Part shown: positions 1 to 25,670 of the stretch, in pieces | Layout of the letters: the number at the start of each line of letters is the position of its first letter | How positions within the stretch are numbered: position 1 is the first letter of the stretch | Assembly (NCBI GenBank): GCA_002269645.1 | Contig: NIVC01002967.1 | Span: 1 to 64,000, forward strand | DNA length: 64,000 nt | DNA from: Macrostomum lignano | Taxonomy: Eukaryota | Reading direction: 5' to 3' | Notes under the pieces: model-generated | The model's input: only the letters and a program-made list of their open reading frames with translations | What the model was told of the DNA's origin: nothing | Databases searched by the model: none | Translations under genes and position numbers: made by a program

Positions 1-1272
1 ATATACCTCCAAATATGACGTTGTACACGGTACTAGTTGCAGCATTGAAGCGTAACTCTAGTTTTACATTTCCTTCCTTATACAGTTGCACTCCCCGTCC
101 GACACCAGGTTCACTTCCAAGACTGAATGCAAAAATTGAGTAACCATTGGCGTAATCCAGCATATTAAATCCAATATCTCGTCCCTGTAGATAGATTCCA
201 AGCTGTTGTAGCAAAAAATTATACTCTGTCACACAATCATCTCCAAAGTTTGTCTGCAGCGGACGCGATGGTACCGAGTCTCCATTCACAAACACACCAA
301 TGCTGCTCACATTTGCATGCTCAAAGTTGAACGGATTTGTGTCCATGCTTCCATTGAATGCCTTGTTGCTTACGATTGCCATCAATAAAAGCCGTGGTAC
401 CCCACTAGGAAACAAATTTTCATGCGTATGGCTAGACGATCCTCGGGGTATAGTAAACGTACCAAGGCTTAGACTTCGGTGCGGATATAATGCATTGTGA
501 CTTTTAAGTCCATGAGCATGTGCACTGATAACACTCGGCGAGGGTTGAACAAACCGCAATCGTAGTTCTGCACGCAAAAACTTGATCTCATAGTCTTTTA
601 AAACCGCACCAGCTTCTAATGTTGACCGCTCAGGACAAATTTACTTTTTGCCGGTATGAGCTTGATCCGTAGTGGTGTCTTTGATAGTAGATACCGAGGC
701 TGACGAAACAAATCCAAGAATAACGGCCCCGATACAGTGCACCGCCTATTGTTAGCAATGAGCGCCTGCCTCTTTGTTCGTCCATCGTTTTCACTTGTTG
801 CATTCATTTTACCAGCTGTATCCTTGTAAAACCCCCACGGCAGTAAACCAGCCTTCTGAGCTGTATGTCCATATTCCAGTAATGTAAGAAGCATAGCCTT
901 GTATGGATACATAAAACTACCACCTTCAACTACAGTATCGCCAATAGTAAATTGAACGTCCTCAAACAATGTTCCAATAACCAAATTATTCAAACAAACA
1001 AAATTTTTCGTTGCATCTATAGGTTCACCTTCACTATCACTAACGCTGAAGCATACCGTGAGCACAGTTTCTTGTAGATCCAAATACAAATCGCCTGCAG
1101 GCACAACTTCAAATTCGATAGGTGATCCTTTTGTAATACCATGTTGCGGTTGAATGTTAGTATATCGATTATCCAAAACACTAAACTGAACAGGACTTTG
1201 ATCAAATAGCGACAATTCACTTTTAAGAGCAGCAATATCAGGTCCAAGCAAATGGTTCATGCTACTTTTCAA
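1..1272 (-). pseudogene. Polinton double-jelly-roll major capsid protein, frameshifted at ~620-640; C-terminus runs off the window
   Basis: KSELSLF...SPIEF...YPYKA..FYKDTAGKM in ORF 616-1272. After the TAG at 616-618 a shifted frame continues open to base 1 (SPSVISAHA...FNGSMDTNPFNFEH...RPLQTNF...GYSIFAFSL...LELRF), matching the C-terminal half of Maverick MCP. Confidence 0.9.
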
Positions 1273-1761: not shown

Positions 1762-2922
1762 TTACTTATACACTTTAGAAAATAGTTTAGCAGTCTTTGC
1801 GTCAAGATCATTTTCGTTTAACCACTGACTTCTTGAGATTGGCATACCTTTCCATTTTACTAGATACAGACGACTTCCATTTTTCGCTCGATCAGTTTCA
1901 ATAACTTTTTCAATTTCATTAGGTGTTTCATCTGTCTCGTTTACCAACATTAGTTCCGCTTGGTTAAACCTTCCTTTCAGCACTTCAAATCCATCTTCAG
2001 GGTCCACTAATTCGTACATTGGCGGGTCTGTCAAGTGTACACGATGAATGCGATATTTTGAATTACTCCAAGTCGTAGTGTATCCTTTTTCAAATGTTCC
2101 TCGACGTCGTGTAATTCTAACCCAATCACCAACTTTAAATTTATTCTCATTCTTTTTAGTGTACGACTTCGCAAACATTTTGTCCCACAAAATTCCTTGT
2201 AAATGCGGGTCTGTCTCTACCCGTTTTGGTGTTTCTCCACTCAAGGATCGATGAGGACTAGAGTTGAAATTATCTTCCAATTGCGGTAAAATGTCAAACC
2301 ATCGAGGTAAATTTTTTGCTCGAAAGTATCGTAATAGACGTTCCTTTAACGAGCGGATAAATCGTTCAGCCATGCTTGCCTTGTAATTGCTTTGGCTAAC
2401 AAAAAATCGAACTCCTTCCTGTTTCAGCATTTGACGTGTAGCTCTTCCGAGAAACTCCATACCAGCATCACCTTGTAAATAAACAGGCTTAAAACCACTT
2501 CGAAAAATCTCTAGTAATACTTGACTAACTTCTGAAGGCTTCTTTGTACGCAATGGTCTTAGTCGTACAACTCTAGTAAAACAGTCGATAAGAACAAGTA
2601 TGTAACGATAACCTCGATTTTCCGTCTTGTATTGAGGTAAATCTGCCAAATCGATTTGAAACTGAAACTTTGCAACTGGTGGCACACTAATTTTTGGAGT
2701 TGGAAAGTTTCGTCGTGTTTTTCGAAATAAATGATGCTCATTTGTTGATCGCACCCAATTATCAACTTCGCGCTTTGCAACTTTGTTCGTAATCTGTGGA
2801 AACTTTTTACGTACTTCACGAACAAGTATAGTCTTGTTACCACTAAATGAAGTAGGCCTGTTCAAGTTAAAAAAAGCATCCGTCAAAAATTCTTCAATTT
2901 CCTTACGCACTCGCTTCATCAT
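1762..2922 (-). CDS. Polinton retroviral-like (rve) integrase with C-terminal chromodomain
   Basis: FQIDLADL, LIDCFTR, LQGDAGMEF, AERFIRSLK catalytic core; C-terminal IEKVI...YLVKWKGMPISRSQW chromodomain. Confidence 0.95.
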   Translation of the reverse strand: MMKRVRKEIEEFLTDAFFNLNRPTSFSGNKTILVREVRKKFPQITNKVAKREVDNWVRSTNEHHLFRKTRRNFPTPKISVPPVAKFQFQIDLADLPQYKTENRGYRYILVLIDCFTRVVRLRPLRTKKPSEVSQVLLEIFRSGFKPVYLQGDAGMEFLGRATRQMLKQEGVRFFVSQSNYKASMAERFIRSLKERLLRYFRAKNLPRWFDILPQLEDNFNSSPHRSLSGETPKRVETDPHLQGILWDKMFAKSYTKKNENKFKVGDWVRITRRRGTFEKGYTTTWSNSKYRIHRVHLTDPPMYELVDPEDGFEVLKGRFNQAELMLVNETDETPNEIEKVIETDRAKNGSRLYLVKWKGMPISRSQWLNENDLDAKTAKLFSKVYK

Positions 2923-4331: not shown

Positions 4332-4387
4332 TCTTACAAAACAAATTCACAAAATTTTCTATTACACAATTAATCTTTGCTTATAAA

Positions 4388-5377
4388 TTAGTCCGACCTA
4401 TGTTTAAAATGCAGTACGACAACAACGTGTGCTCCCGGATCAAAATTAAACGGTTTTCCGCGCTGGTCCGATAGTCGAATCGAAATCTCGTGAATTTGTT
4501 GTCGATTTGTTTTCAAGTAGTAGGGTGTTTGCAATGCACTGCTATCGCGTATAAGTTCTCCGTTTTTCTTTTGTTGGAGTTCCACAACTCGAAGCAACGG
4601 TACTGATGTACTTCCCACTGCTTGATACTCGATTATATCTGTGTAACAGTACATGTAAACCGTTTTACTAGGCATCGGAGAAGGTAGCACAGCATCCAAG
4701 TAGGTTTTGTTAATGCGCCAAACACGATTTCTCAACCAATATTGGTGTACTTTGATGTACACTTCTCCTTCCGTTTTTCGAAGATAGTCTCCATGCGAAA
4801 CAAGTCGTATAGCTTCACCAGGCGATAGAACACAATAAAAAACATAATAGTTCTCAGGTACTAGCGCTAGAGTATTGTCGAGACTTTTTATCAAATCCAA
4901 GTATGAACCATCCGGTGGTTGTACACTACCAGCGGCAGGTTTTGATAATTTTTCCGAGACAAGTCCAGAAAGTTTCTTCCAAGAGTCAAATTTGAAAGCG
5001 TCCATAAATGTAACTGGTAGTTCTAATCCAATAGTTTTTTCGCCTGAATTTCGTAAAAGCCAGGCAAATTTTTCATCTGTACCAGACGGTTGCCAGGAAA
5101 CGTAAGCATCCAAGTCTGCCTCTGCCCAAACACGACCCCAATAGTTTTTCTTTAATCGTATTATTGAGTCAATGTCCGCAAAATATGGAACTTCAAATCG
5201 ACGCTCACGATGAGCATTTGGCGTCGTAATTGCTCCATGGCACAGTAATTCAACTAGTGCAACCTCGAAGAATCCGTTCAATAAATTTATTGGTTCAGTT
5301 AGTCGCACTCGAAATTCATTAGGCGAGTTGGTTTCGTAACTGATATCGTTTGACGGCAAAAAAACGTAAAAACTCAT
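4388..5377 (-). CDS. Minor capsid protein (penton)
   Basis: SFYVFLPSN...FRVRLTEPINL..FEVALVEL at the N-terminus; YCYTDIIEYQAVGSTSVPLLRVV...ISIRLSDQRG...VVLHF at the C-terminus. Confidence 0.9.
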   Translation of the reverse strand: MSFYVFLPSNDISYETNSPNEFRVRLTEPINLLNGFFEVALVELLCHGAITTPNAHRERRFEVPYFADIDSIIRLKKNYWGRVWAEADLDAYVSWQPSGTDEKFAWLLRNSGEKTIGLELPVTFMDAFKFDSWKKLSGLVSEKLSKPAAGSVQPPDGSYLDLIKSLDNTLALVPENYYVFYCVLSPGEAIRLVSHGDYLRKTEGEVYIKVHQYWLRNRVWRINKTYLDAVLPSPMPSKTVYMYCYTDIIEYQAVGSTSVPLLRVVELQQKKNGELIRDSSALQTPYYLKTNRQQIHEISIRLSDQRGKPFNFDPGAHVVVVLHFKHRSD

Positions 5378-5434
5378 TTTGAAATAAAACACAAACTAAT
5401 ATTGACAACAGTTTATAATTTGCTTATAATAATA

Positions 5435-6130
5435 TTACACAAACTTTGCATCACATTCACGAGTATAGACAACTTGTTCATCACCAGAAAATATTCCTGT
5501 TCTCAATCGTAAAAAATCTGGTGTCACTTGCCGCAGGTCAATGAATAAATATGAAAAAGGTTTGTTATTTGTTGCGTCTTCATACACATTCACTAGAAAC
5601 CTACTATTACGCGGATACATTTGTCGACCGAGATGTTCAACTGTGGTTCGATCGCGCACACTACGAGTTAGACAAATATAACTAGCTGATAAACTTCGCA
5701 TGCGTGCTTCTGGATCAGACTTGTTAAAAAGACCTTGACAAAGGTACAGACAAGTCAAAGGGATATGATGCGCATGCTTTGTAAACATACTAGTAAATTC
5801 TGGCAACTTAGCAATCTCGCTTTGCAAGTCGTCAACAACAACCAAATCGTGTGGTAAAAAACGATTAATCATCTGTGGTGTGAATTCGGGTACAAAAACA
5901 ATAGGGTCAAGACCGCTTTTTTGCCAGCATGTTCTAATTCGTTGTTGATCGTCTGGTTTCAAACTTGATCCATGGCACCAAACAAGACGGCACGGTTTTT
6001 TATCAAATAATTCTTTTCGTTCAGTCAACAAACGCAACGTCCATTCAGTTTTACCCGAGTTTGAAGGTCCAGCAATAATAAATGTAGAATCGTGAGCTAG
6101 TTGCATATTGTATGGCTGCTGCATTTTCAA
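5435..6130 (-). CDS. A32/FtsK-like DNA packaging ATPase
   Basis: Walker A IAGPSNSGKT, Walker B LVVVDD, HH motif and YLFIDL. Confidence 0.93.
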   Translation of the reverse strand: MKMQQPYNMQLAHDSTFIIAGPSNSGKTEWTLRLLTERKELFDKKPCRLVWCHGSSLKPDDQQRIRTCWQKSGLDPIVFVPEFTPQMINRFLPHDLVVVDDLQSEIAKLPEFTSMFTKHAHHIPLTCLYLCQGLFNKSDPEARMRSLSASYICLTRSVRDRTTVEHLGRQMYPRNSRFLVNVYEDATNNKPFSYLFIDLRQVTPDFLRLRTGIFSGDEQVVYTRECDAKFV

Positions 6131-6570
6131 GCACCAAAGCGTTGCTTAACTTGCATAACCTTGGTAACCAACTTCGCAGCTAGTTTTTCTTTCCAACCAG
6201 TAGACGGATCGTGGGCAATCTCTCGTGCACCAGATTCTAATAGCTTATCAGCTTTTAACCTCTCTTGCACGTCAGAATTTTTATCATAGGCCACGTCGTG
6301 AAGCATGCACAAATTGTCAAGCCGATTAATTCCTCGTTGTCCTTTTGCTAGCCTAGCTTGCAGTTGCGTACCTGGACCACAAAACTGATATCCGCCGGGT
6401 AAATGTGCTTCAAATGGTAAATGATTAATTAACCAATTTACGACACCATAACCTTGTTGCTTTTTATTAATCTTTCTAATAGATTTCTTCTTTTTACGAA
6501 TGCTCTTCTTTTTCTTTTTAAAACCTCGATCTTTCGCTGGAGACATTTTTACAACATATATTTTAGGCAT
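6127..6570 (-). CDS. Parvovirus VP1u-like phospholipase A2 (PLA2X)
   Basis: HLPGGYQFCGPG calcium loop and LDNLCMLHDVAY catalytic HD; basic N-terminus. Confidence 0.92.
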   Translation of the reverse strand: MPKIYVVKMSPAKDRGFKKKKKSIRKKKKSIRKINKKQQGYGVVNWLINHLPFEAHLPGGYQFCGPGTQLQARLAKGQRGINRLDNLCMLHDVAYDKNSDVQERLKADKLLESGAREIAHDPSTGWKEKLAAKLVTKVMQVKQRFGA

Positions 6571-6661
6571 AAATTTTTAAAATTGCTTATAGTATTTACA
6601 AAGCTCTCGCATAGTGCACCAATCACCAAAGAAAAAAATCAGTTTATTATTATTATTATAC

Positions 6662-7144
6662 TTATTGGCCAGTGCTGCCAAAGCCGCCAAAGCCGCGCCG
6701 CTTGGTCGGCGGCTCAATCATCCGAATCGAATTGTCTGCTTCAGTCACATAGACTGAAGCAAGCACGGCCTGCTCCAGAACCAGTTGTGCAATACTGAGC
6801 CCGGCATAGTACTCAAAGTCTTCCGGACTGTAATTAAACAAGACTATACAGATTTCACCAGTATAGTCGGGGTCGATTACGCCACCGCCAACAAATAAGC
6901 TGTGCAGAGCCATGCTGGAACGTCCCGCTATCCTGCCATAGGTACCAGGCGGTAAGCGAATTTTGAGTCCGGTTCGCACACTCCGGGACTCGTAGGCCGG
7001 AATGGTACCATCGACGCCAGCGCAAAGATCATACCCGATCGACCCGACAGTTTTTCGGGTCGGAATCGTTGCCGAATCGTATAGACGTTCAACTAAAAGC
7101 TTACGATCAGTTAGTTGTTGTTGCTGCTGCTGCTCGGGATTCAT
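6662..7144 (-). CDS. dut: Trimeric dUTPase
   Basis: All five motifs present: GSIGYDL, GRSS, GVIDPDYTGE, IAQLV, RGFGGFGSTG. Likely ATG at 7144 followed by poly-Q. Confidence 0.95.
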   Translation of the reverse strand: MNPEQQQQQQLTDRKLLVERLYDSATIPTRKTVGSIGYDLCAGVDGTIPAYESRSVRTGLKIRLPPGTYGRIAGRSSMALHSLFVGGGVIDPDYTGEICIVLFNYSPEDFEYYAGLSIAQLVLEQAVLASVYVTEADNSIRMIEPPTKRRGFGGFGSTGQ

Positions 7145-7436
7145 GTCGATTCTTGTAGCTGAAAGTTTAAAAAAAAGTTTTTTTTCTTGAAACATGAACG
7201 ATAGCACTACATTTACGTCTACTACAAACACAAGCTTAGTCTTGAGAATCTAACTATAAAAAATATACTTTTTCAAATAATTAAACACAAAAAAGTGCTA
7301 AAATTATAATTTAAACGAATGCCGGTATCATTTATTTATTGTAAATAATGATCAATGAAAAAATTAATGATGGGTTACAGTCTTCTATAGCATGCTATTA
7401 CTTTGTACAACAAAAGAGATCAGAGCATATTGTTAA

Positions 7437-7767
7437 TTAATTAGCCAAGTGCCAGTGTCCAAAGGGTAGCGAATTAATTGAACTTGTCCAGGATCGCTTC
7501 GTATCGAAGAAGCTTAGTGCAAGTTTTCTTTGTTGCATCAAAAAAAACTTTCTGTTTTCGAGAACGAATGGACTGTATGCGCGAAAACACAAGTTGTCGC
7601 TTGTGTAAGACTCTTAAATAGTCTTGATGCTTTAAACTGCTCTGTGCGGCTTTAGAAGCAGTACTGCTCCAGCTTTGCGACCGATTGAGACTGGAACTTT
7701 AAACGATTGCTGCTTAACCAGACCGGACCGGACTGGACCGGACCGGACTGGACCGGACTCCCCGCGC

Positions 7768-7799
<32 letters not shown>

Positions 7800-8545
7800 A
7801 CCACCACCACCGCCGCCACCACCACCACCACCACCGCCACCACCACCACCACTGCCGCCGCCCGCCCCACACCACCGTGGGACGTATTTGTTGACAGTGT
7901 GCTTGCATGGCTTTTGCGATAAACGCAGAGCATCAAGTCTAGCTGCTCGATTGCTCTATATTGCCAATTACTACCTCGAGATTGAAAATTGTCAATTTTT
8001 ATTAACAACTGATTAATAACGCGTGCGAACCAGTCATTGTAGGCCTCGGGAGATAACAGCATGTCACTGTTTGCAATCGTCTCATCAAATGATATTGTCG
8101 CAATGTTGGTATTAAAATAGACCGAAATGATCTCTTCGCTGCTCGAGCCATCGTTGTCGTCTGCTGCTGTTTTCGGTCGAAATAGTGTCACTTTCAAGTG
8201 AAAGCAGACTCTTATTAATAAACTGGGTGAGCCAATTTTTTCCAATATTTTAAATATTGGTTCTCTTAAAGACGCAATCAACTCGCCAGGAAGTAACTCG
8301 CCAGAGCTGTTGCCTTGTTGTTCAAGAGTGGGAGTAAATTCGACAAAATTTACCCGACCACGATGAGCTGACTCGCGCAAAGCGATGGACCACCCATCTG
8401 GTGGGTTTTCGATCAGGTTTTGCAGCGATCCGGTCAGTAATCGTTGCGGTGAAAAACAAGCACCATGCGAGTGAGCATGCAGCTCGGCTTGATTACTGAA
8501 CTTTTTTCTGCAGATTTGGCATTGTGCACGCGGCATTGTGTGCAC
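7437..8545 (-). pseudogene. Protein-primed PolB remnant: N-terminus (8545-~7900) and extreme C-terminus (~7700-7437), catalytic centre missing
   Basis: N-part: C2H2-like CQIC..H..H and KIDNFQSRGSNWQYRAIEQLDL (Maverick PolB N-terminal motif). C-part, translated by hand with one shift at the A-run near 7535: SLKHQDYLRVL...QSIRSRKQKV...RKLALSFFDTKR...SLPFGHWHL*. Confidence 0.8.
7721..7878. repeat. Compound microsatellite (GGACC/GGACT)n-(GCC)n-(ACC)n
   Basis: Directly visible; sits at the PolB deletion junction. Confidence 0.95.
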
Positions 8546-8759
8546 CTAGCTCGACAACGAGCGTATCGAGCATAATATTAATAGATGATCCGGTTTGTCA
8601 TTTGCGGCTGTAAGAAAAATGATGATTTGGTTAGTTATAGGTATAGCTGACACGTTTACTATTAGAGAAAACAATTGGTAAATAAATAAAAAAAGACAAA
8701 ATGTTTGTAAAAGAATGCATCGCAACTGCGATTTGACAGCAATTGTTTACTTGTTAAGT

Positions 8760-9317
8760 TTAGTTATTAACAGAGATTAAAAAATCCTTGACATGGTTAA
8801 GAATATTATTCAATTCATGAGTGTTTTGAACGCCCATAATAACAAACTTTTTCGAAAAAAATATGTTACAAAAAAGCCTTGGTTTTGATGCTGATCTAAC
8901 AGAAACTGCTTGTGGGAAATTTTCTGCATCGTATCCAACCAGATAATTCGAATAGTAGCCTGCATATCTTTTTAGACTAGAGAAACCGAATTTTGGCCAA
9001 AGATGACCAATAAAGCCGACATAGGTACTGCTCTGAATTTTTACTGAATCAAAATCTACACAATTAATAGTGTCGTTGATAAATCGTAAAACTGAGACTA
9101 TCTGAGAATTTGATTTACAGCCATATATAGTTAGTTTTCCTGCTGGATAAAGTTGGATTTTAGCATTTGAATAAATTGTCTTTAGCATTGTTGGTCGGCT
9201 TAGGAATAGTTTGCAAAACCGGTTTCTGGTCTGTAGCTTCTGTTTGGTCTGCTTTAAATCAAATTTTTCAAACGGGTGCAGCTTCAGACTCGCAGTAACT
9301 ATTAATAGGACAAGTCG
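8760..9317 (-). CDS. TATA-binding-protein-like protein (two TBP repeats), divergent
   Basis: Repeat 1: LIVTASLKL..FDLK...AKIQLYPAGKLTIYGCKS. Repeat 2: VKIQSSTYVG...YDAENFPQAVSVRSASKPRLFCNIFFSKKFVIMGVQN (cf. YEPELFPGLIYRM.KP.IVLLIFVSGKVVLTGAK). Frame is open to 9317, preceded by a polypyrimidine...TTTTAG acceptor. Confidence 0.75.
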   Translation of the reverse strand, partial: RLVLLIVTASLKLHPFEKFDLKQTKQKLQTRNRFCKLFLSRPTMLKTIYSNAKIQLYPAGKLTIYGCKSNSQIVSVLRFINDTINCVDFDSVKIQSSTYVGFIGHLWPKFGFSSLKRYAGYYSNYLVGYDAENFPQAVSVRSASKPRLFCNIFFSKKFVIMGVQNTHELNNILNHVKDFLISVNN

Positions 9318-9527
9318 CTAAAACGGAAAATAAATAATAAGAAAAGTTAAACATGACTATACTATCGTAAATTCTAATATTAAATTACAAAACCTGGTTA
9401 GCGTACAAGGAGTAGCAAAAAATGTTTTGAGCTTTTCCCTAAAAAATAATATTTCCCTAGCCAAAAATTTGATAAATATAGTGGAATAAGTTAGTTAAAA
9501 CTTGGATAAAATTAGTCAAAAATTTTG

Positions 9528-10726
9528 TTACTCATCATCAGAGCTGCTGTACGAGTCGTCCGATGAAGACACGCTAGCTGTAGTAGCGTCCGCAGCAGCA
9601 CGCTTTAAAAATGCTGTCTCCTTGGACGCTACCCTGGTTCCAGAGGCAGGTGTACTCACCAAGATCTTTGCTGGTGGAGCCTCCACCCAGTCTGTGCCAT
9701 CTGCACCAGCTTCGGCAGAATTGTTTTGCTGTTTTGCACCGCTGCGTTTTCGAACTTGCTTTTTAGGCGGCGGTTCAATAGAGGCTGGCGCTGCATTCGA
9801 TGTAGTCGACTTCTTCGATACGGTGGTGGTAGACCGACGCTTTGCAGGTGACTTGGCAGGTGTCACCTGGCTTGAATTCTGCAGGCTTTGTTCATTTGCT
9901 TCTTCTTGCTCACAGGTAGATGTTGGGGACGGACTCCTGCTTCTAATTGCTGACTTGGTCGCGGGTAGGTGTGCAAGCACTCCCTTGAACATGTCGAGGC
10001 GCTGCAACATGTTGTCGGAAGATTCTATGAGTGTCAGAGAGCGCACAGCGAATGTAATGCGCCAGACGAGGCAGCCTTTTGGACAATACAAGCTCGTTGC
10101 TTGCACTGTCATTTGGTAGGTACCGCTGACACCTTTGAAATCGGAAATGGACACCTCCTTCCCGTGTGGATGATCGTTGCTGATCCTGATTGTGGCACAA
10201 GGGTAAGCAGGCTTTATAGCCAGCCATTGTTGAGGCACAAACTCGAGGACGTCGTTAGCATGCTGATGAGCTGGTTTTGTTAGTCGTGCCAAGGGTCGAG
10301 CATCTTGAATCTCGTTCAACTTGACCGATAGACCTTTTTCGACTTGACTGCAAAACATTATATAAATTATGAATATAGTTTCCTAAAATTAATTGTATAA
10401 ATTTAATATGGTGCTCACCGGAGAGAGTGGAAGAGTTCCTTATCGCAGCTGTCTGGATGAAATTGGACACTTACTGCGTCGCGAGAGTCGTGTCTGCAAG
10501 ACGGATGATCGAGCTCTGGCCTTTCTGCGATTCCACGAAAAAGCTCCATTGGAGCCTTGGTTTGCAATATAATTGGGTACCATTTTGTACACTCGATTGA
10601 TGGTTTCCACGCAATAGATCGAAACTGGCAGGACGAACCAGTCGTGGTTGTAGACTGCTCTCCAACGTAAAAAATCGGACTCGAGTCGGAGCGTACAATT
10701 GACTCCGTCTTGATGCAAGCTGCCAT
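9528..10726 (-). CDS. Two-exon gene (intron 10348-10418), putative OB-fold ssDNA-binding protein with S/T/K-rich tail
   Basis: A 71-nt GTGAGC...TTTTGCAG AT-rich intron joins ORF 10415-10726 in frame to ORF 9528-10358 (ELFHSLR-QVEKGL). IILQTKAPMELF and TYQMTVQATSLY...WRITFAVRSLTL resemble viral OB-fold SSBs. Confidence 0.6.
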
Positions 10727-10804: not shown

Positions 10805-10812
10805 TATTTATA
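10805..10812 (-). promoter_or_regulatory. Canonical TATA box (TATAAATA) upstream of the SSB-like gene
   Basis: About 80 nt upstream of the ATG at 10726. Confidence 0.5.
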
Positions 10813-11419
10813 GCAAGCTTTGCATGCTGTTTGTGAACTAGTAAACAAATTTAATTGTTGCGTGCTGATTAAGACATTGTTGCGTGCCAAAGGTGGCATA
10901 AGTTTCTAGGGTGGGTTGCATGATTAGGTCTAATTTTACGCAAATGTAGGTTGATATTTTATACAATAAAATTAATGAATCTTAGGCACACTAGTTATAA
11001 ATTTGCAAGAGTAACACGATGGCAAGCGTTTAATAAGAAGACTGCTGGTTGCTGCTTCATTAGATTGGTTTTGTTCTCAAGTAGAATGTAATTAAAATAT
11101 TTTGCGACTTGAAAAATTAGCAATCTTGGATTTTAGAGTAAAAATAAGCTGCACGCGGTGCTATGAAATTAATTTATTGAAAGTTTTGCTTGCATGTTGG
11201 AATTTTTTAGCTCGCACGGTGACAAGAGATTGCTTGAGTAACCTATATATAGAGTGTTACTTTTCAAACAGAAAAAGGTATAGTTGTAACTCAGCTTTTG
11301 CAGTCCTATATTGAGCAGAAGCTATATAGAGTTACACTATCATGCTGCGACGCGCAGCTTGTTGGGACTATAATGACTGCCGCTGCTATAACCGCATGCA
11401 GTCAGTGCAGTTGACACAC

Positions 11420-12125
11420 AAATGCTGTTTGGACTAAGCTAAATTACTGTGTTGAGACAGTTAAGCTGGACCACGGCTAAATCACTATTGATACGGTTAA
11501 TTGCTACTAGACCCATGGCTAAATCACTGTACGTTGAGACGGTTAAGCTGGACCACGACTAAATCGCTGTACATTGAGACGGTGGTTAAGCTGGACCATG
11601 GTTATAAAACTGGACGGGTGGTTAAGCTGGACGACTACAGCTAAAATTACTGTTGAGTCAGTTATGCTAGACCACAGCAGCCAAATCACAGTTGAGGTAA
11701 AGCTGACCATAGCTAATTCTCACTGTTGAGACGGGTGCTGCTGCTTGGCTCACAGCTAAATAACTGGACAGTTAAGCTAATCGGACTACAGCTAAATCCC
11801 TGTTGAGACAGTTGCCTGGACCACAGCTAAAATCACTGTTGAGGCAGTTAAGTCTGGACAACAGCTAAAATTACTGTTGAGACAGTTTAGCCTTGACTAT
11901 AGCTAAATCATCGTTGAGGTAGTTAAGCCTGGACTATAGCTAAATCACTGTTGATGCAGTTTTAAGCTAGACCACAGCTAAATCATACTGCTGAGGCAAA
12001 AAAGCCGGACCACGGCTAAAAACTGTTGAGGCAAAAGCTGGACCACAGCTAAATCATACTGTTGAGGCAAAAGCTGGACCACAGCTAAATCATACTGTTG
12101 AGGCAAAAGCCAGACCATGGCTAAA
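11420..12125. repeat. Degenerate ~37-42 bp minisatellite (gctggaccacagctaaatcactgttgag...)
   Basis: Many tandem, diverged units visible. Confidence 0.9.
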
Positions 12126-12374
12126 GAAACGTATGAAAAAAAATTATTTGCATGGATTAATAATTTTTGTTTAATGATGACTGTACAAGATATTGACTTT
12201 ATATTGAATTAAATAATTTCAATAAATGGCGAATAAAATTGAAAGAATTTTTTAGAATAATGAATTTATAGAGATTATATTATTGATTACAGACTTGTTT
12301 GATATATACTAAAAGAGCAATTACTTGGACACATTGCTGGCAAAATTTTATGAAGAGTTAGAAAAAATGTCTTT

Positions 12375-12926
12375 TTAAGATAGGTCCCAATATTCAAATA
12401 CTTGAGTTGTATTACAGGTCTTTGGTAATTCTACTTGGTAGAAGCCTGTGCTCATTTGAGAGACTTTTACAGACTTGATGTCCTTCTGTACAATAATTGG
12501 CGAGTTTAGCAGCGGTTGAACTTGGGTAGAAATAGCAATTGATGATGATGGTGTTTCAGTTGCTGTCGTTGGTTTGGTACTTGTAGGCTTACTGCAAGTT
12601 TGCTTTGTTGGGTCATTGTAGCTGGTTGGTGATGGTGGTGGTGGTGCATACTGCAGTTGGTCAGTTGGTCGTGGGTTCGATTGCTGCCTAATTGACTGAA
12701 TAACATCAGTTCTTGTGTAAATGCGATCTAGCTCAGTTGTCTGTCTCTCGACATGAATCGAGGTTACTCTGGCGAGAGATGTAGAATATGATGCTCTTGC
12801 AGCAGAATTGGATGTGGTGGTGTCGTGGCAAATGCGTTTGCACTGATCTGGAGGTGGCCGCGTGAAGAAAACATTCTTGAATGCTATAATAATGGATAAG
12901 ATGAGGGAAATTTGGTATAGGTGCAT
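12375..12926 (-). CDS. Hypothetical secreted/membrane-anchored S/T/P-rich (mucin-like) protein
   Basis: Hydrophobic N-terminus (YQISLILSIIIAF) and S/T/P-rich middle; 183 aa with ATG. Confidence 0.45.
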   Translation of the reverse strand: MHLYQISLILSIIIAFKNVFFTRPPPDQCKRICHDTTTSNSAARASYSTSLARVTSIHVERQTTELDRIYTRTDVIQSIRQQSNPRPTDQLQYAPPPPSPTSYNDPTKQTCSKPTSTKPTTATETPSSSIAISTQVQPLLNSPIIVQKDIKSVKVSQMSTGFYQVELPKTCNTTQVFEYWDLS

Positions 12927-13165: not shown

Positions 13166-14691
13166 CTAGAGTAGGTGATTATCTTACCTTGTTTAACATA
13201 GCGCTCGGCCAATTCCTGCTGACGTGATCGCTTCATTTCACTTAAGATGTAAGTATAGTTGAACAAGTAGTATAATGTAAACTTGGTTTAAGTTATTTAA
13301 TATTTTCTGTGTCAGTGTGTTCGTATATATATATAGTATAAAGAAGAAGCATGTTGACGCAGTTGTTGACATAGTATCTGTAAACCATCTGCTCAAGTTG
13401 GTGCAAAAATTCTATAGGCACTCAAGAATAGATCATTTACTATCTTTCTTCAAAAGGGTGATAATATTCACAAGTTTTCAATATTTCAAAAACACTTGAA
13501 ATGTGTGAATAGCTTTGGAGTAAATTTGTCTTGAATGGAATCCTTTGAAGTGTGTTTGTGTCACCATTGCTAGAATCGGTTACTTGTATTTTGGACAGGT
13601 GGATATGCAATTCGTCTGAATAATCACGTTGCGTAAAAGATATTTAGCGTGCACTTGGAATTTCAGACTGCGTGCACATGGAATTTCAGACTGCGTGCAC
13701 ATGAAATTTCGGACTCTGCCATTTTTTTGGGCCTGTACTTACTATGTATTTCGCCATAAGGAAATCGGCTTTGTGTCAAAAAAACGTATACTACTTGGCT
13801 CTATGCTTCAAGCTTTTGGCTCGCTTGATGAAGTGTTGGGGGCTACAATTAATTAATACCTCAGCAGCTCATCACTACAACTGCAGCTCATCCACCTCCG
13901 ACTGTGGCGAGGACGGCTAGCATGAACGGTCTTCAGCTGGTGCTACCGCCAGTCACGGGGGCTGCCTACATAGTAAAAATTGACAAATTTGAAATAGTCT
14001 TTACTCCAATTTAGGTAAATTAAGCTTTGAAATTCCGATTTATTAATTAGTTTGCTACATGAATCTTGATCTACCGTCGTTTTTTTCTCGCTAATTTTTA
14101 CTAACATTTTATTCCTAACCAGTAAAATTTATATAAGGCTGCGATTGTAAATTGAAATAATTGTAACGTTTTAAATAAACGAGGCGAAAGCCGGTGGTTC
14201 TTAATTATTATTGGTAATAAGATAAGTTTACAAGATAGATCGAAGAACTGCAACCGTTTGATTGCGGGTGATTTATGTTTATAGCTTTTTCATGGAACAC
14301 TCCGGAAGAAAGAATTTTCTAGAAAGAGTCACGCGGGAATTGAAGTTACTATATTTAGAATCATATTTTAGCGCGGAAATTTCTCGAATGAAATGTTTAC
14401 TGAATAGTCGGAAAGTTTGCAAAGGTTTAGTACAAGGTCACAACATAATTAAAATTAAATAAGGTTGTTAATGTGCGTGCTGAAGCACAAAAGTGTCTAC
14501 TGATTATTGGAATACAAAGTAGTGAACAATGGTTTTTTATTTTTAATAAATAAAATGTTTGTTGCAAAGTTACAGCTGCATTATTCACCAACTTATTATA
14601 GCATAAAATATGTAAAGCATGCCTATTTTCAAAGGAAAAAAATGAATTACTAAATTTGGTAAAGTGGCTCGCTTGGCAAGTACAACAAAAA

Positions 14692-17815: not shown

Positions 17816-18042
17816 GTAGTGATCCGCTAGTTGATGTTAGGCGTCCCACTCTGTCAGCAGTCGCCCTTGCCTGGCCCGCGCCCTGGGTTGCTGTCTGCCG
17901 CTGGGCAGCGTCCCGTCCGGTCCCCTTTTGTCTGTCTGTTGCTGCTCCCTTCCTTCTTCTGCCCGTTTTGCCCTTCGTTTCTCAGCCCCCAGCTTCTCTG
18001 CTGTGGGCTGACCTCGTTCCGTCAGTCTTGGTTTCCCCTGTC
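17816..18042 (+). mobile_element. LINE 3' UTR-like fragment (diverged homologue of 25440-25670)
   Basis: Colinear similarity starting tgtagt.atccgcta and ending ttcccctgtca in both copies. Confidence 0.7.
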
Positions 18043-18425
18043 AAGAAGTTTAGCTGAGATTGAGGATGTTCTGGCGCTCGCCCAAACCGCCAGATCATCC
18101 GCATATTGACTAACATGTACCTTTCTATCAGCAGGCAGTGGAATATTGTTGACATATACCAGGAAGAGCAGCGGCGAGAAAACTCCCCCCTGTGGAACTC
18201 CAGCTGCCGGGGAGAAGCTCTCGCTAAGAGCCCCTCCAACCTGGACCTGCAGATCTCTATCGTCAAGATAGCTGGAAACTGACCTCGTTAGGCAATGGGG
18301 TAGACCACTTTCAAGGAGATCTAACCGTAGCGAGTCATGCCAGACTCCATCGAAGGCACCTTCAACGTCAAAGAAGACCCCAAGGGTGTACTGACTGAGT
18401 TGCAGCATCTTGAGGACGTCATCAG
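18043..18425 (-). pseudogene. Inverted duplicate of the LINE RT segment (left arm; continues at 23216-23320 after the Gypsy)
   Basis: Reverse complement of 24253-24740 with one mismatch seen. Confidence 0.9.
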
Positions 18426-21400
18426 TGTGGGGCAGTGTACATCTGCCTCCCTCTCCCTCTCCCTCGCTCAATTGGTCCGGCGCTATCACTGCCCCGTACA
18501 AGTACGTACAGCCAACCACTCACTTCAATAATTGATTTAGCTCATATTACGCAATTAGTCATAGCCAAATATAAGCCGGCCCTGCTAAGTGCAAGCGGCC
18601 CTTGAGTTATTCTTCATGCCTGCCTAGCACCATATCGCGGCATTGACTTTTCTACATTGGCGTCGCAAGCCATCGGACAAACAAGCGCCATGGCAAACTT
18701 CATTTCTCTGCCACCGCCCGAGCCGTTCAATCCATCCAGCGACTCTCAAAACTCAAGCAAGCAGTGGGCGGCCTGGTCAAGCAGATTCGATGACTTCATC
18801 GCAGCGTCTGGAATCTCAGAAGAAAAACAAAAGTGCAAGCTGCTCTCCTACACGGGGGGCAGAGAGCTAGCCGAGATCATCAGAGAAGTGCAGGCCAATC
18901 ACGAAGACACGAAAGAATCGCTGGAGAGGCTTCTGGCCGAACTGACCAACTATTTCAACGACCGAAAAAACCTGGTCTTCGCACGGTATCAGTTTCGGCA
19001 GTGCACACAACAGCTGGGAGAGACCATAGACAACTGGTACGCTCGGATGAAAGCATCCGCTGACACCTGCGACTTCGGAGAACTTCGAGATTCCATCATT
19101 CGTGATCAGTTGGTCGCCACCTGCCTCTCTGACGCACTTCGTCGCCGACTACTGCGAGAATCTGACATTTCGCTCAGCGACGCTCTCAAGTGTGCGAGAG
19201 CCCACGAAGCTTCAGAAGCGCAAGCAACCGCAATCGAGCAATCGAAGGACTCGACCGTCGCTGCTATCAGCCAGCAAGGCACCACGCAACGGCAACGGCA
19301 TCGGCAACAACAGCCAAACAGAAGAAGTCATTTGGACCGCCCACCACAATCAACAAGTCAATCCCTCACCTGCTACAGATGCGGCGAATCCGGCCACAGC
19401 AACTGTGAAGCTGCTAGAGGCAAAACTTGCAGCCACTGCGGAAAACCGAACCATTTGGCAAAGGCGTGCCGTCGGGGCAACGCAGGCGCGGCTCGATATT
19501 CAAAAGTGAACTCTGTTTCAACTGAAGAAGCCCAAATTCTCTACACCGACGAGAGCATTACTGAGGACGTCTTCACTCTGCCCGCTGACCGGGTGCAGTA
19601 CCCAGAAGATGTGACAGTGCGAGTCCTGGTTGGAGGTGAGCCTCTAGATATGATGGTAGACAGCGGGGCCAGCTGCAACATCATGAGCGATGAGACATTC
19701 AAGAAGCTCCACGGAGTGCAACTTCTCCATACCAACCGCGTCATCAAGGCGTACGGCGCATCTGCCCCGCTCAACATCAAAGGAATGTCGCATCTTGTAA
19801 TCACCGTGGGCAAGAACTGCTGCAAGACGCCGTTCTACGTGATGGAAGGGCGGGGTGCCACATTACTCGGGCGCCAGGCCGCCTTTGAACTCGGTTTGCT
19901 TGAAATTCGCCGGCCGAAGCAGCTCGCCGACGTCAGCGCTGTCGAAGCAAACCTTCCGAATGATCCACAACTGAGGACAGTCTTGCAGAAGCACAAGAAT
20001 GTCTTCACAGGGCTCGGCTGCGTCAAAGGCGTCGAGGTATCAGTGCGACTCCAAGAAGATGCCATCCCGGTCTGCCATCCACCAGCCCGAGTTCCGGTCC
20101 ACCTAAAGACAGCAGTGGAAAAAGAGCTGCAGGGCTTACTGGACTTGGACGTCATCGAGCCGGTAACCGGTCCCACACCGTGGGTGTCTCGCATGGTCGT
20201 TGTACCGAAGTCGTCCGGAGGCGTCAGAATATGCCAAGACCTTCGAGACCTCAACAAATTTGTGATCCTGGAAAAGCAAGCCATACCCACCTTGGACGAG
20301 GTCACAGAAGAGATGGCCGGAGCAACCCTATTCAGCGAGCTGGACATCTGCAAAGCATTCTACCAAATACCGGTGGATGAAGAAAGCCGACACCTGTTCA
20401 CATTCAGCACCCCCTTCGGATTGATGCGGCTAAAGCGACTGAGCATGGGGTTTACAAGTGCCTCTGAAATCTTGCAGCGGATCATGTCAGGAGTGCTCAG
20501 CGGCCTCCCCGGAGTCCGGTGGATCCATGATGACGTCATCATATATGCAGACAGTATGCAGCAGCACAATCAGCGCCTTGACGACTGCCTCACTAGGCTC
20601 TCAGAGTGTGGACTCACGGTCAACCCGGGAAAATGCAAGTTCGCCAAAAGTTCCATCAGCTTCCTCGGCGTTACATTATCGGCCAAGGGCATTTCGGCGC
20701 CAGCTGAGAAAATCCAAGCAGTCCAGGATTTTTGACCACCAACCAACGCATCCGAGACTCGGTCCTTCCTGGGACTGGCGAATTATTTGTCGAAGTTCAT
20801 CCCGAGCTTCGCCGACCTGACAGCCCCACTGCGCGAGCTAACCAAGAAGTGCAAGCGCTGGGAATGGACGACTCAGCATGCAGAGGCCTTCAACGCGTTG
20901 AAAAGCGCTATCAGCAAGCCAGAAACGCTGGCCTTCTTTGATTGCAATCGGTCCACAGAACTTGTCGTCGATGCTTCACCAATCGGACTGGGCGCAATTC
21001 TCAGCCAGAAGCAACCGAATGGCACCGTCAGGCCCGTCGCCTACGCCAGTCGAACTCTGACTCCAGTTGAGCAGCGCTACTCACAAATAGAGCGCGAGGC
21101 TTTGGCCGTAAAATTCGGCTGCCTTAAGTTCGACTTCTACTTGGCTGGCAATTCGAATTTTACCATCGTCACAGATCACAAGCCTCTGATCCCGCTTTTT
21201 AAGCCGGGTTCACGGCCGCCGCCGAGAATTCAGCGAATGGCGCTCCGCATCCAACATCTTCAGTTCAAGCTCGAATACCGGCCCGGCGCATCGAACCCGT
21301 CGGACCTTCTAAGCCGACAGCCGATGCCAACAGATCTGTCTCGTGCTATCGGTGAAACTCTGGACGCCGCCTACATCAACGCAGTGGTCAAAAGTGCTGT

Positions 21401-23210
21401 CCCCCGCGGTCTATCTCTAGAAGACTTCAAAACAGCTACCGGAAGCGACATGGACATCCAGGCTGCCATCACCGGCATCAAGACGCAGCATTGGAACCAG
21501 CACAGCAGTACACAGCGAACCTTCAAAGGAATCGAGCACGAGCTATCAGAAAGCGACGGAGTTCTACTCCGCGGTGACTTGATCGTCGTGCCTTCATCGC
21601 TGCGGCGGCAGGTCTTAGCACTGGCACACACTGGACATCTCAGCGCCGAGCGGACACTCCAGCGGCTGCAGACCAAGGTGTGGTGGCCAGGGGTTCGAGC
21701 CGACTGCGAGGCATTCGTTCAAGCTTGTCTGCCATGTCAGGCCACATCCCACGCTACCTACCATGCGCCGCTGAGGCCTACAAAAATCCCGGATGGGGCC
21801 TGGCTCCTGCTAGGAATGGACTTCTATGGGCCCATCCAAGGACAGATGCTTCTCGTCACGACGGACCTGTTTTCTAAATATCCTGAAATCAACTACGTCA
21901 GCTCAACATCAGCAGCAACAGTTATTCCTCACATACGACAGCTCTTCGCCCGCCACGGGGTCCCGCTGGAGCTGATCACAGACAACGGGCCGCCTTTCAG
22001 CTCGCACGAGTTCCGCGCTTTCCTGACCTCGTTCGGCGTCAAACACCGCCTCATCTGCCCGCTGCATCCTGAAGCCAACGGTGCGACCGAACGCGTCAAT
22101 CGCTCAGTGAACAAAGTTGTCAGAGCCGCTATCGCTGAAGGTCGCTGCTGGAAAGAGGCGCTGGATGAGTGGCTCCTCGCATTCCGGGTGACGCCGCACA
22201 GAGCCACAGGCAAAGCGCCGGCTGAACTTCTGATGGGTCGCAGAGTTAACGACGTCATTCCATCGGTCAGACCATCACGGCGAGCCAGCTGGTCTACCAG
22301 TGACATCAAGAACCGGCACAACCGCTACAACGACAACATGAAGGCCGGCTTCGACAAGACCAAGCGGGTTCGACAGCACAGCATCCGGCCGGGTGACCGA
22401 GTCCTTCGACGGCAGAACAAGTCCAAGCTGCACACCCCGTTCGAACTGGAACCCTGGGTGGTCGAGTCCGTCAAAGGCGACACATTCACTCTGCAACGGC
22501 AAGGACAGTCGTGCATGCGTCACCTGGTGCACATCCGGCCGGTTTCACAGCCGCTGCATCCGCCTGAAGCAGCGGCCGGCCAGCCGCCAGCCAGCGCGGG
22601 TCCCGCTGAAGCAGACGACGGCGAGTCAATCGCAATGCGCAGACACCCGAGAAGAGCGCGAGACGCAGTGATTAACTACAAACTGTGATTTAAAAGGAAC
22701 TGACTGTCTAATATCATTAACTGTCGCTGCTGCCAATCGTTTTTCTTTGCGAATTCGTAGTCAGTTCAATATTTTTGTTTTAATGTCCCCATTACGAATA
22801 TCTCTTTTTGTCTCAACGCGTCCCAAGACTAATATTCGCGCATTTTGTAATACTGTGTTTGCTGCATTTTTACTATCCACAGCCTTTTTTCGCTCGTACT
22901 TACTTCGGCATTGCAATTTTTCGAATTTCTCTTTTGTCGTTCAAGCAGAAACTGCGTTTCTTTTCCGTTTGGGGAGAAATGTGGGGCAGTGTACATCTGC
23001 CTCCCTCTCCCTCTCCCTCGCTCAATTGGTCCGGCGCTATCACTGCCCCGTACAAGTACGTACAGCCAACCACTCACTTCAATAATTGATTTAGCTCATA
23101 TTACGCAATTAGTCATAGCCAAATATAAGCCGGCCCTGCTAAGTGCAAGCGGCCCTTGAGTTATTCTTCATGCCTGCCTAGCACCATATCGCGGCATTGA
23201 CTTTTCTACA
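18426..23210 (+). mobile_element. Full-length Ty3/Gypsy LTR retrotransposon, recent
   Basis: Identical 231-bp TG...CA LTRs (18426-18656, 22980-23210), 5-bp TSD ATCAG, TGG-starting PBS at 18658, purine tract before the 3' LTR. Confidence 0.98.
18690..22688 (+). CDS. Gag-Pol (2 CCHC knuckles, PR, RT, RNase H, integrase) with one in-frame TGA at 20733-20735
   Basis: CYRCGESGH and CSHCGKPNH knuckles, VDSGAS, WIHDDVI, VDASPIGLG, GMDFYGP/ITDNGPPF/ANGATER; both ORFs are in the same frame. Confidence 0.95.
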
Positions 23211-24285: not shown

Positions 24286-25670
24286 GCAATATCATTAGTC
24301 CAGATCAATGTGCATATAGACAAGATGATTGCACCTTCGATAACATAGTTAGGATTACTGATGACGTCCTCAAGATGCTGCAACTCAGTCAGTACACCCT
24401 TGGGGTCTTCTTTGACGTTGAAGGTGCCTTCGATGGAGTCTGGCATGACTCGCTACGGTTAGATCTCCTTGAAAGTGGTCTACCCCATTGCCTAACGAGG
24501 TCAGTTTCCAGCTATCTTGACGATAGAGATCTGCAGGTCCAGGTTGGAGGGGCTCTTAGCGAGAGCTTCTCCCCGGCAGCTGGAGTTCCACAGGGGGGAG
24601 TTTTCTCGCCGCTGCTCTTCCTGGTATATGTCAACAATATTCCACTGCCTGCTGATAGAAAGGTACATGTTAGTCAATATGCGGATGATCTGGCGGTTTG
24701 GGCGAGCGCCAGGACATCCTCAATCTCAGCTAAACTTCTTAACGCCTACTTCAAGAAAGCTCAGGTCTGGCTTGACGAAGTTGGGATTATTATCAACCCC
24801 AATAAGAGCACAGCGATTTTGTTCGTTAAGCCTCTGGGCAACCAACGTACTGGGCCTGACAAGCCCCCCCCTGTTACTTGGAAATCAGTCCATCCCTTAC
24901 CATGACTCCGTCTCCTTCTTAGGTATTATCCTCGAAAAACAGCTCACCTTTAAGCCACACCTGGCCAAAATCGTGCATGCTGCTCAAAATAAATTGTTCG
25001 CGCTTCAAAGCTTAGCCAAAGACTGGAATTTCTCAGCTAGGGCTCAGACTAATCTATAGATTGTACATAGAGAGTTGTATGGTCTATGGTGCTCCAGTGC
25101 TGATATATCTCACGGATGTACAGCTCAATAAGCTTCAGCTGATGCAGAACAAGGCACTCAGGGTGTCCCTTGATGCCCCAGCGCACACAATAATTAGCTA
25201 TTTGCACTACATCACTAAGATGCCTATGATCAAAGAGCGCATTTGGAGCCTAGCTAAGCGCTGGTATAATAAAGCTGATGCCACTGGAGTGCACAGTTTC
25301 GACCTAGACACTAGAAAATGGGATAGAAGGGGGTTCAGGGTGCCTGCAGTGGCCCGCCTGAAAAGTGTTTAAAGAATTGCTTTTTTTATTAGAGCTGAGC
25401 TTCTTACAGCCGCAACTTAATTTTTCTAGTCAATACAGCTGTAGTAATCCGCTATTTTAGTGTTAGGCGTCGCACTTTGTCAGCAGTTGCCCTTGCCCTC
25501 GCCCTCGCCCTGGGTTGCTGTCTGCCGCTGGTCAGCTTCGCGCCTCCTTCCTTTTGGCTGTCTGTTGCTGCTCCCGTCCCTCCTTCTGTCCGTTTTGCAC
25601 TTCGTTTCTCAGCCCTCAGCTTCTCTGCTGTGGGCTGTCTTTATTTCGTCAGTCTCAGTTTCCCCTGTCA
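24286..25670 (+). mobile_element. 5'-truncated Jockey/I-like LINE (RT C-terminal part and 3' UTR), frameshifted
   Basis: DQCAYRQ...FFDVEGAFDGVWH, GVPQGGVFSP, QYADD; the C-terminal domain ends at 25372. Confidence 0.92.

Follow-up and report, generated by a model that had tools for sequence, protein, structure and literature searches.

A TBP-like exon without a start codon in Macrostomum lignano Polintons: a predicted SSB-TBP fusion and candidate late-gene TBP

How does a Polinton, which has no RNA polymerase of its own, separate the expression of its early genes from that of its virion genes? The question is raised by a TATA-binding-protein (TBP)-like coding exon at 8760..9317 (-) of the window, by which we mean the whole analysed stretch of 64,000 nucleotides of M. 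lignano contig NIVC01002967.1. The exon comprises 185 codons and a stop, without a start codon before codon 44. An earlier note had described it as an open reading frame of about 185 amino acids with both TBP repeats, and the length and the two repeats hold; what does not hold is the tacit picture of an ordinary ATG-started gene, as 8763-9317 (-) is a stop-to-stop frame of 185 codons whose first Met, codon 44, would give only 142 aa. In our best explanation, to which we give slightly more than an even chance, this exon is spliced to the SSB-like gene upstream of it, generating a predicted 517-aa fusion that serves the element as its own late-gene TBP.

The family assignment rests on several searches. 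Pfam TBP (PF00352) matched the frame in two stretches (E 2.2e-7, 31 bits versus a cut-off of 22.9), and in a PDB sequence search all seven matches up to E 1 were TBP or TBP-containing chains. The AlphaFold model, for which the input alignment contained host TBP and TRF2 rows, reached a pLDDT of 95.6, and the Foldseek matches listed above E 1e-6 were TBP chains, the best with E 5e-10 and a TM of ~0.73. The two-repeat saddle fold of PF00352 is present by profile, model and structure search, as the earlier note had expected. Among viral structures, the matches were TBP-like proteins of large DNA viruses; TBPs of Nucleocytoviricota and mirusviruses share the fold (best E 7e-10), but with an identity of at most 16%. 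ESM Atlas neighbours were mostly viral TBP clusters (0.95-0.96), and a single-protein search of a large database, with 36 candidates of lengths 101-324, returned no match at E 0.001. Most TBP-bearing Nucleocytoviricota and mirusviruses encode their own RNA polymerase, whereas no RNA polymerase gene was seen in these Polinton elements of 15-20 kb.

The TBP-like gene is real and Polinton-borne. It sits in a single-strand gene array, co-oriented between a remnant of the protein-primed polymerase gene PolB (7437..8536, (-); 7652-8536 in its narrower bounds) and the upstream gene (9528-10726), which agrees with the placement given in the earlier note. In the direction of transcription PolB is followed by a dUTPase (6662..7195, (-); PF00692, E 1.5e-29), a PLA2-like virion gene (6127..6570, (-); PF08398, E 3.4e-9), a putative packaging ATPase with a Walker A motif in its sequence (5435..6124, (-)), a putative minor capsid (penton) gene kept in all lineage-A elements (4388..5377, (-)), a retroviral-type integrase with chromodomain (1762..2922, (-); Pfam rve and Chromo) and a putative major capsid gene (2..1260, (-)), which consists of two frames in the window copy and of one 459-aa frame in copy G000:C424. 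Pfam searches for jelly-roll capsid proteins and packaging ATPase gave no matches, and the ATPase, minor capsid and major capsid labels are putative ones, assigned from gene order and motifs. The right terminal inverted repeat (TIR) lies at 13699..13795 (~100 bp, start approximate), the left end falling outside the window. Relative to copy G000:C84, about 3.2 kb of PolB are absent; the deletion point, common to the amplified subfamily, is occupied by a GGC/CCG low-complexity run with short repeats (7700-7900). Protein priming is indicated by a PF03175 match in the PolB frame of a sister family, a part that is deleted in the window's subfamily. The stretch from the likely early promoter to the right TIR holds a tandem-repeat block (11400-12200) and a 183-aa ORF with a hydrophobic N-terminus (12375-12926, (-); no Pfam match). 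Outside the Polinton, the window contains a Gypsy-like LTR retrotransposon (18690-22688, (+); with gag-pol and integrase motifs, as judged by eye) as well as fragments of LINE reverse transcriptase (18022-18408, 24375-25372, 29288-31037).

Six other copies align to the window over 7.9-13.8 kb at 97-99.8% identity and diverge past ~13,795, and copy C424 of the same family is bounded by terminal inverted repeats. Among 83 matches obtained by searching the genome itself with the TBP-like protein, 22 show no difference over 185 residues and four reach 99% identity; the number of insertion events may be smaller than that of matches, since host genes themselves appear in three copies. For instance, the host TBP and TRF2 cores, both intronless, are each present three times (L041:4713-5369 (-), L042:4345-5535 (-)). 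Sister Polinton families bounded by TIRs, in which the TBP-like protein is 40-46% identical, keep the gene at the same position in the order SSB-like, TBP-like, dNK, PolB, dUTPase, PLA2, ATPase, capsid-type, integrase; the window's subfamily and copy C84 both lack the dNK gene. In one family (L069:3-1346 (-), G000:C297, C362) the TBP-like frame continues in frame into the deoxynucleoside kinase, forming an open frame of 469-473 aa with Pfam matches to both TBP and dNK. The elements resemble published Polintons, Mavericks and adintoviruses, for which passages of PMC8502044 describe pPolB, integrase, ATPase, PLA2-like and capsid-type genes as well as AG...CT terminal repeats and a 6-bp target duplication. 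Such a duplication was clear in three of the eight elements shown, the window's own family not being among those three.

TBP-like genes were found in all four Polinton lineages (A, B, C and D) examined in this genome, the window belonging to lineage A. A Pfam search of the genome, in which 150 of 330 candidates were scored, showed host TBP, host TRF2 and many more TBP-like copies, the latter being lineages B and C, Polintons in which the TBP has its own ATG. Lineage D, a fourth ATPase lineage, gave no Pfam match at E 0.01, and its TBP fold was identified from local profiles (E ~1e-9) and from a model with a pLDDT of 87.7, built on an alignment without host rows, for which the top Foldseek matches were TBP. 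A search for TBP was negative in C3589, a TIR-bounded copy resembling lineage A, and in C1666, a fragment at a contig end. Lineage-D elements are ~10 kb long, with long TIRs and without a PolB-sized ORF, and retain integrase-like, capsid-like, ATPase and TBP-like genes (L132-L133 in G000:C175, L134-L135 in C384, L136-L137 in C10). In lineage B, a DEDD-exonuclease-like gene overlaps the start of the TBP gene, and the first gene (L054:6988-7752 (-), G000:C84) is by eye PC4/Sub1-like.

A host paralogue as the source of the gene, which the earlier note had held against its own claim, is ruled out by the TIR-bounded elements with their differing flanks and by phylogeny. In a quick IQ-TREE analysis (78 rows, midpoint root, lineage D and most RPxM matches left out), lineage A and four outside relatives formed one clade (SH-aLRT 96), nested in a clade of divergent TBP-like proteins with a repeat-1 RPxM motif (SH-aLRT 98); the TBPs of lineages B and C formed a separate clade (SH-aLRT 97), and host TBP and TRF2 grouped with cellular proteins. 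The tree carries long branches, so that artificial grouping is possible, and given these and the midpoint root we claim no donor for the Polinton TBPs. The RPxM set comprises 38 of 137 representative matches by motif, and 171 proteins at E 1e-8, mostly on short contigs. No related loci were found in viral contigs searched with two alignments, and one metagenome locus considered as a relative was rejected as a spurious bacterial match. One outside protein (P0039) consists of a TBP part followed by a tail that by eye resembles a decayed kinase.

How, then, is a frame without a start codon translated? Its first 43 codons form the first strand, helix and second strand of the model, and comparison among copies points to coding-type constraint on them. 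Codon positions 1/2/3 show identities of 0.46/0.57/0.34; for amino acids the value is 0.38 versus 0.40 in the rest of the frame, whereas the other two frames over the same codons reach only 0.16-0.18 and contain stops. In addition, pN is smaller than pS in 15 of 15 pairs, and dN/dS is 0.24 versus 0.12 in the remainder for the single pair unsaturated in both parts. Directly before Arg1 lies a predicted phase-0 splice acceptor, a polypyrimidine tract followed by TAG (9318..9336, (-)). Forty nucleotides at this acceptor are identical in all 20 fetched identical copies, a pyrimidine tract with YAG precedes the same Arg in phase 0 in all six family representatives, and a strict acceptor rule holds in 11 of the 11 copies aligned from residue 1 versus ~0.1% of element positions. 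Two outside proteins have a Gln before the same Arg position, as CAG would encode. The frame would need splicing for its translation, a point that the earlier note had overlooked.

A matching donor is found within the upstream gene. This SSB-like gene consists of exon 1 with the ATG (10419..10726, (-)), intron 1 (10348..10418, (-); 71 nt, GT-AG, phase 2) and exon 2 (9528..10347, (-)), which encodes a domain followed by a basic, low-complexity tail. It had no Pfam, PDB or PHROG match; ESM Atlas matches led to giant-virus DUF2738/DUF5871 clusters (0.92-0.93), of which DUF2738 is an SSB family. The SSB label, which would imply an OB-fold domain as in T7 gp2.5-like and giant-virus SSBs, is a lead only. 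A GTRAGY splice donor over a Val-Ser codon pair (9654..9659, (-)) occurs in phase 0, 42-50 codons before the SSB stop, in 13 of 13 copies from all six families, with donor-to-acceptor distances of 259-619 nt across families. It falls within an invariant P-x-K-x-L-V-S island of an otherwise unconserved tail. Against a background of 26 GTRAGY among 93 other Val-Ser pairs, the codon choice has a p of ~0.0005-0.002. The exon side of the donor is non-consensus, which fits a partly used site. Conservation of both acceptor and donor contrasts with synonymous sites that are close to saturated. Likewise, in lineage D a phase-0 donor in the upstream ORF lies 181 nt before a phase-0 acceptor preceding the TBP fold, while this ORF has no detectable homology to the lineage-A SSB-like gene (probability 0.8%). 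Use of the donor would remove a predicted alternative intron 2 (9318..9659, (-); 342 nt) together with the last 43 codons and the stop of the SSB-like frame, and join 9660 to 9317, giving a predicted fusion with exons of 332 + 185 = 517 codons. Splicing into the TBP exon from the intron-1 donor or from a donor at the SSB stop, both phase 2, was rejected as out of frame. An in-frame ATG 33 nt upstream of the TBP frame occurs in one family (C209/C1680) and is absent in the other five.

Contigs from four runs bear on these predictions. None of the runs is recorded as RNA; from the skipping of intron 1, the joint of which is present in three of the four runs and in three studies, we infer that X4, X6 and X8 are RNA, X1 having shown none. 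On this evidence the element is both transcribed and subject to splicing. Among the contig pieces listed from the four runs there was no junction at 9317/9318, cis or leader, whereas the intron 1 joint was there, and contigs of X1, X4, X6 and X8 run unspliced through the TBP acceptor. A coverage gap of X6 and X8 at ~9375-9504 is bridged by no contig and is not counted as evidence. A fused SSB-TBP protein was absent among the 137 representative matches, whose gene calls mostly ignore introns.

Our first reading had the TBP frame start from the host spliced leader, since in flatworms this leader carries a terminal AUG from which translation can begin; after the donor scan we demoted the leader AUG as sole start. 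What survives of that reading is an alternative that keeps the late-TBP role but makes a stand-alone 186-aa TBP the main product, its start AUG supplied in trans by the leader and the upstream donor little used. In one X8 contig, 23 nt of the host spliced leader are joined at 8608/8609, an acceptor (8608..8609, (-)) 71 nt before the PolB ATG that stands at a loose end of this one contig, and the leader sequence agrees with the published one. The leader motif occurs 58 times in G000, and three of eight inspected matches are SL RNA genes with the AUG followed by a GTAAG donor. These true SL RNA genes stand in arrays with ~11.3 kb spacing; the other five (L061-L064, L083), in which the GT donor is missing, seem to be retroposed sequences that bear the leader, or the 5' ends of repeats. 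An AUG at the leader's end is described for flatworms in passages of PMC12582326 and PMC9851317, the latter reporting, with reference to Cheng 2006, that translation can begin there; moreover, cis and trans splicing widely use common acceptors (PMC12582326). Furthermore, the genomic ATG that stands at the PolB N-terminus in the window, C84 and C2285a gives way, at precisely this place, to a phase-0 CAG in copies C2529 and C102, a swap that would fit leader initiation at PolB, although the donor predicted for the TBP exon might be employed there instead. Lineages B and C, in which the TBP is a stand-alone protein with an ATG of its own, point in the same direction, and a phase-0 acceptor sets the leader AUG in frame; however, as this is true of any phase-0 acceptor, phase alone cannot favour a leader start. 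The alternative also leaves unexplained the phase-0 donor conserved in six of six families and in lineage D, and no leader was seen at the TBP acceptor among the contig pieces listed from the four runs. We consider it unlikely as the main route, whereas the fusion and a stand-alone product may both exist, since flatworm acceptors are common to cis and trans splicing. The leader found here is the AUG-ending one of flatworm trans-splicing, but while the passages of PMC8629364, PMC12582326 and PMC9851317 concern host gene targets, here it is joined to an acceptor of a virus-like element.

Returning to the predicted SSB-TBP fusion, the next question is what its TBP domain might read. In the window a canonical TATAAA (10807..10812, (-)) lies ~80 nt before exon 1 of the SSB-like gene and is the likely early promoter; a canonical TATA-like box is found at this position in six of the six elements shown. 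A different motif precedes the virion-type genes: TATAAGCAA before the PLA2-like gene, followed by the ATPase (6583..6591, (-)), before the putative minor capsid gene (5420..5428, (-)) and before a PX-like gene (4377..4385, (-)), and TATAAGTAA before a basic core-like gene, followed by the putative major capsid gene (1762..1770, (-)). The pattern TATAAG(C/T)(A/T)A, initially picked by eye, occurs in seven lineage-A elements 33 times in sense and never in antisense orientation, with 1.67 expected, counts that are not independent since the positions are homologous. Across all 64 kb of the window the pattern does not reach significance (5 vs 2.66; reached by 9 of 100 shuffles). In an unbiased ranking TATAAGC comes first among 7-mers (27 vs 4.3). 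The genes that follow a lineage-A box, at a distance of 19-351 nt, are those for dUTPase, PLA2, penton, PX, integrase, core-like or capsid proteins; the SSB-like, TBP, dNK and PolB genes have no such box and follow the canonical TATA. This non-canonical variant is restricted to virion-type genes, from which gene type we derive the term 'late'. The ATPase and the putative major capsid gene begin 1-2 nt past the upstream stop (6124-6129, 1260-1264) and have no box of their own in the window's family, which suggests bicistronic messages with re-initiation.

Each of the other lineages likewise has its own promoter-like box before virion-type genes. The lineage-B box CTTAAGAA was found 16 times in sense and once in antisense orientation in three elements and not at all in five lineage-A elements, one lineage-B element containing in addition three A-type boxes. 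The lineage-C box, taken by eye from listed sites, is of the type (C/T)(A/T)TAAGA. The lineage-D box TA(T/C)AAATA, which is near the canonical TATA, occurs nine times in sense and never in antisense orientation in each of two elements. In 7-mer rankings the B box came 4th and 5th and the C box 5th and 6th, while the D box was outside the top 8.

In a comparison of four lineages only, the residues of the protein may in part mirror these boxes. The earlier note had suspected substitutions at DNA-contact positions, and repeat 1 indeed has Arg-Pro at the first intercalating Phe and Tyr57 at the second, while the base-reading Asn positions are Leu4 and Ser96; of the canonical set of four Phe and two Asn, two Phe are kept, one is Tyr and one is lost. 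Repeat 2 retains Phe134, Pro135, Phe153 and the acidic Asp130/Glu132, which in sequence align with host Glu125/Glu127, Glu132 being invariant in 12 of 12 rows and present in 41 of 42. The C-terminal repeat of TBP reads the 5' half of the box, with Pro191 imposing T at its first base, according to passages of PMC1636458. The corresponding Pro is kept in lineage A (6/6), where the box begins with TATA but has a non-canonical 3' half and where repeat 1 is remodelled; lineages B and C have lost the Pro and accept C first, whereas lineage D has T first in spite of lacking the Pro. The register of the box relative to the TBP could differ from the one assumed here. TBP and TFIIB are a textbook pair. 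None of the 15 Pfam TFIIB matches in G000 shows the multicopy Polinton pattern, and together with the invariant acidic stirrup this makes host TFIIB the likely partner. The earlier proposal of a redirection of host Pol II with altered specificity gains indirect support from non-canonical boxes that change between lineages.

Alternatively, host TBP could be what reads the boxes, as weak variants of TATA, with the viral TBP acting as a decoy for TFIIB or other partners that damps host transcription or times viral genes by repression. The loss of one intercalating Phe and of both Asn next to an invariant acidic stirrup would suit such a decoy, as would the precedent of TRF2, which lost TATA binding along with a Phe (PMC10005294). 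Also, wild-type TBP binds TATAAG-type variants, to judge from the titles of PDB entries 1qn5 and 1qn3 (single G(-26) and C(-25) variants), and the lineage-D box is near canonical. Against this, three of the four Phe positions are still aromatic and Pro135 is kept, and a single host TBP would not predict lineage-specific boxes confined to virion-type genes next to an early unit with canonical TATA; we regard this explanation as quite unlikely. We give a decidedly smaller place to a role of the fold in replication or genome handling instead of transcription, either by bending terminal repeats or by ssDNA binding with the SSB-like part: the gene lies among SSB-like, dNK and PolB genes, is fused in frame to dNK in one family, and a divergent Giardia TBP prefers single-stranded DNA (PMC12209930), but the invariant TFIIB-side Glu and the lineage-specific boxes would be left unexplained, and in lineages B and C the TBP gene lies away from an SSB-like context. 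Finally, that the frame is translated from Met44 as a truncated protein of one and a half repeats, or is unused, is hardly probable, since in spite of contigs that span the acceptor unspliced, a Met44 invariant in six of six families and identical copies too young for selection to show, it conflicts with the coding constraint on codons 1-43, on which the first strand, helix and second strand of the model depend, and with an acceptor and donor kept despite near-saturated synonymous sites.

Taking the SSB-TBP fusion with a late-gene role as the preferred explanation, we propose the following model. Transcription would start at the canonical TATA box read by host factors, and intron 1, as seen in the contigs, is spliced out of the transcript. 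If intron 2 is kept, the SSB-like protein alone (375 aa) would be produced; if it is removed, the SSB-TBP fusion would result, and a host leader AUG at the same acceptor could yield a stand-alone 186-aa TBP form. The TBP domain would then bind the TATAAG(C/T)(A/T)A boxes of virion-type genes, preferring TATAAGCAA over TATAAAAG and mutated boxes, with the conserved repeat 2 reading the TATA half and leaving the non-canonical half to the altered repeat 1. Host TFIIB and Pol II would be brought in by the acidic stirrup that the protein has kept, and the SSB-like part may tie late transcription to replicating, partly single-stranded genomes.

Our model is reminiscent of the TBP mimics of beta- and gammaherpesviruses of the KSHV ORF24 type, where, as set out in passages of PMC12529657, a virus that is nuclear and encodes no RNA polymerase likewise carries a TBP fold, with late genes behind a non-canonical TATTWAA and early genes behind conventional promoters. 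ORF24, in contrast, is a large protein in a six-member complex; it has all four Phe but not the TFIIB-binding acids, and makes direct contact with Pol II (PMC12529657), whereas the Polinton TBP is a bare core or a predicted SSB fusion that has kept the acids and lost the first Phe. A comparison with the herpesvirus-type preinitiation complex found no Pol II-binding N-terminal domain, only a 185-aa core in an element of 15-20 kb; by analogy, the Polinton TBP most likely works like a herpesvirus TBP mimic without being a member of that system. With cellular TBP and TRF2 (host G000:C70, G000:C350) it shares the saddle fold (TM ~0.73), the repeat-2 Phe pair, the Pro and the acidic stirrup, but it matches host TBP at only 35 of 169 aligned residues, its repeat 1 has been remodelled around RPxM, and the gene is multicopy inside mobile elements and falls into a separate clade. 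As for Polintons themselves, the earlier note knew of no TBP as a standard gene; a TBP label does already appear, for a related element, in the Fig. 5 legend of PMC8502044 (2021), and this legend and its preprint were the only literature record of TBP in a Polinton-like element that we found, in a search that covered mainly freely accessible papers. The passages of PMC8502044 contain no discussion of TBP function, splicing or late boxes, and its supplement no match for TBP, TATA or Macrostomum, whereas here TBP occurs in four lineages of one genome. What is probably new is that one genome contains four TBP/box pairs matched by lineage, and that the gene depends on splicing and probably encodes a fusion.

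Although currently speculative, and in our estimate holding less than an even chance, a wider hypothesis would be that animal Polintons possess a one-protein late switch, a TBP that co-evolved with a lineage-specific code (TATAAGC, CTTAAGA, YWTAAGA, TAYAAAT). Here, an alternatively spliced SSB-TBP fusion would couple virion-gene transcription to replicating ssDNA genomes, the leader AUG would give a second, stand-alone form, and the hundreds of metagenome RPxM proteins would belong to the same system. Polinton TBPs are likely undercounted, because gene callers miss or truncate the TBP gene. One flatworm genome with four lineages, each with a different TBP and box, offers a set for cross-specificity (protein A or B versus box A or B), in which the lineage TBPs would be natural altered-specificity TBPs. 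If true, the spliced SSB-TBP fusion would be a compact coupling of replication to late transcription, and the use of a leader-supplied AUG, if true, would represent a viral dependence on an RNA process specific to the host lineage.
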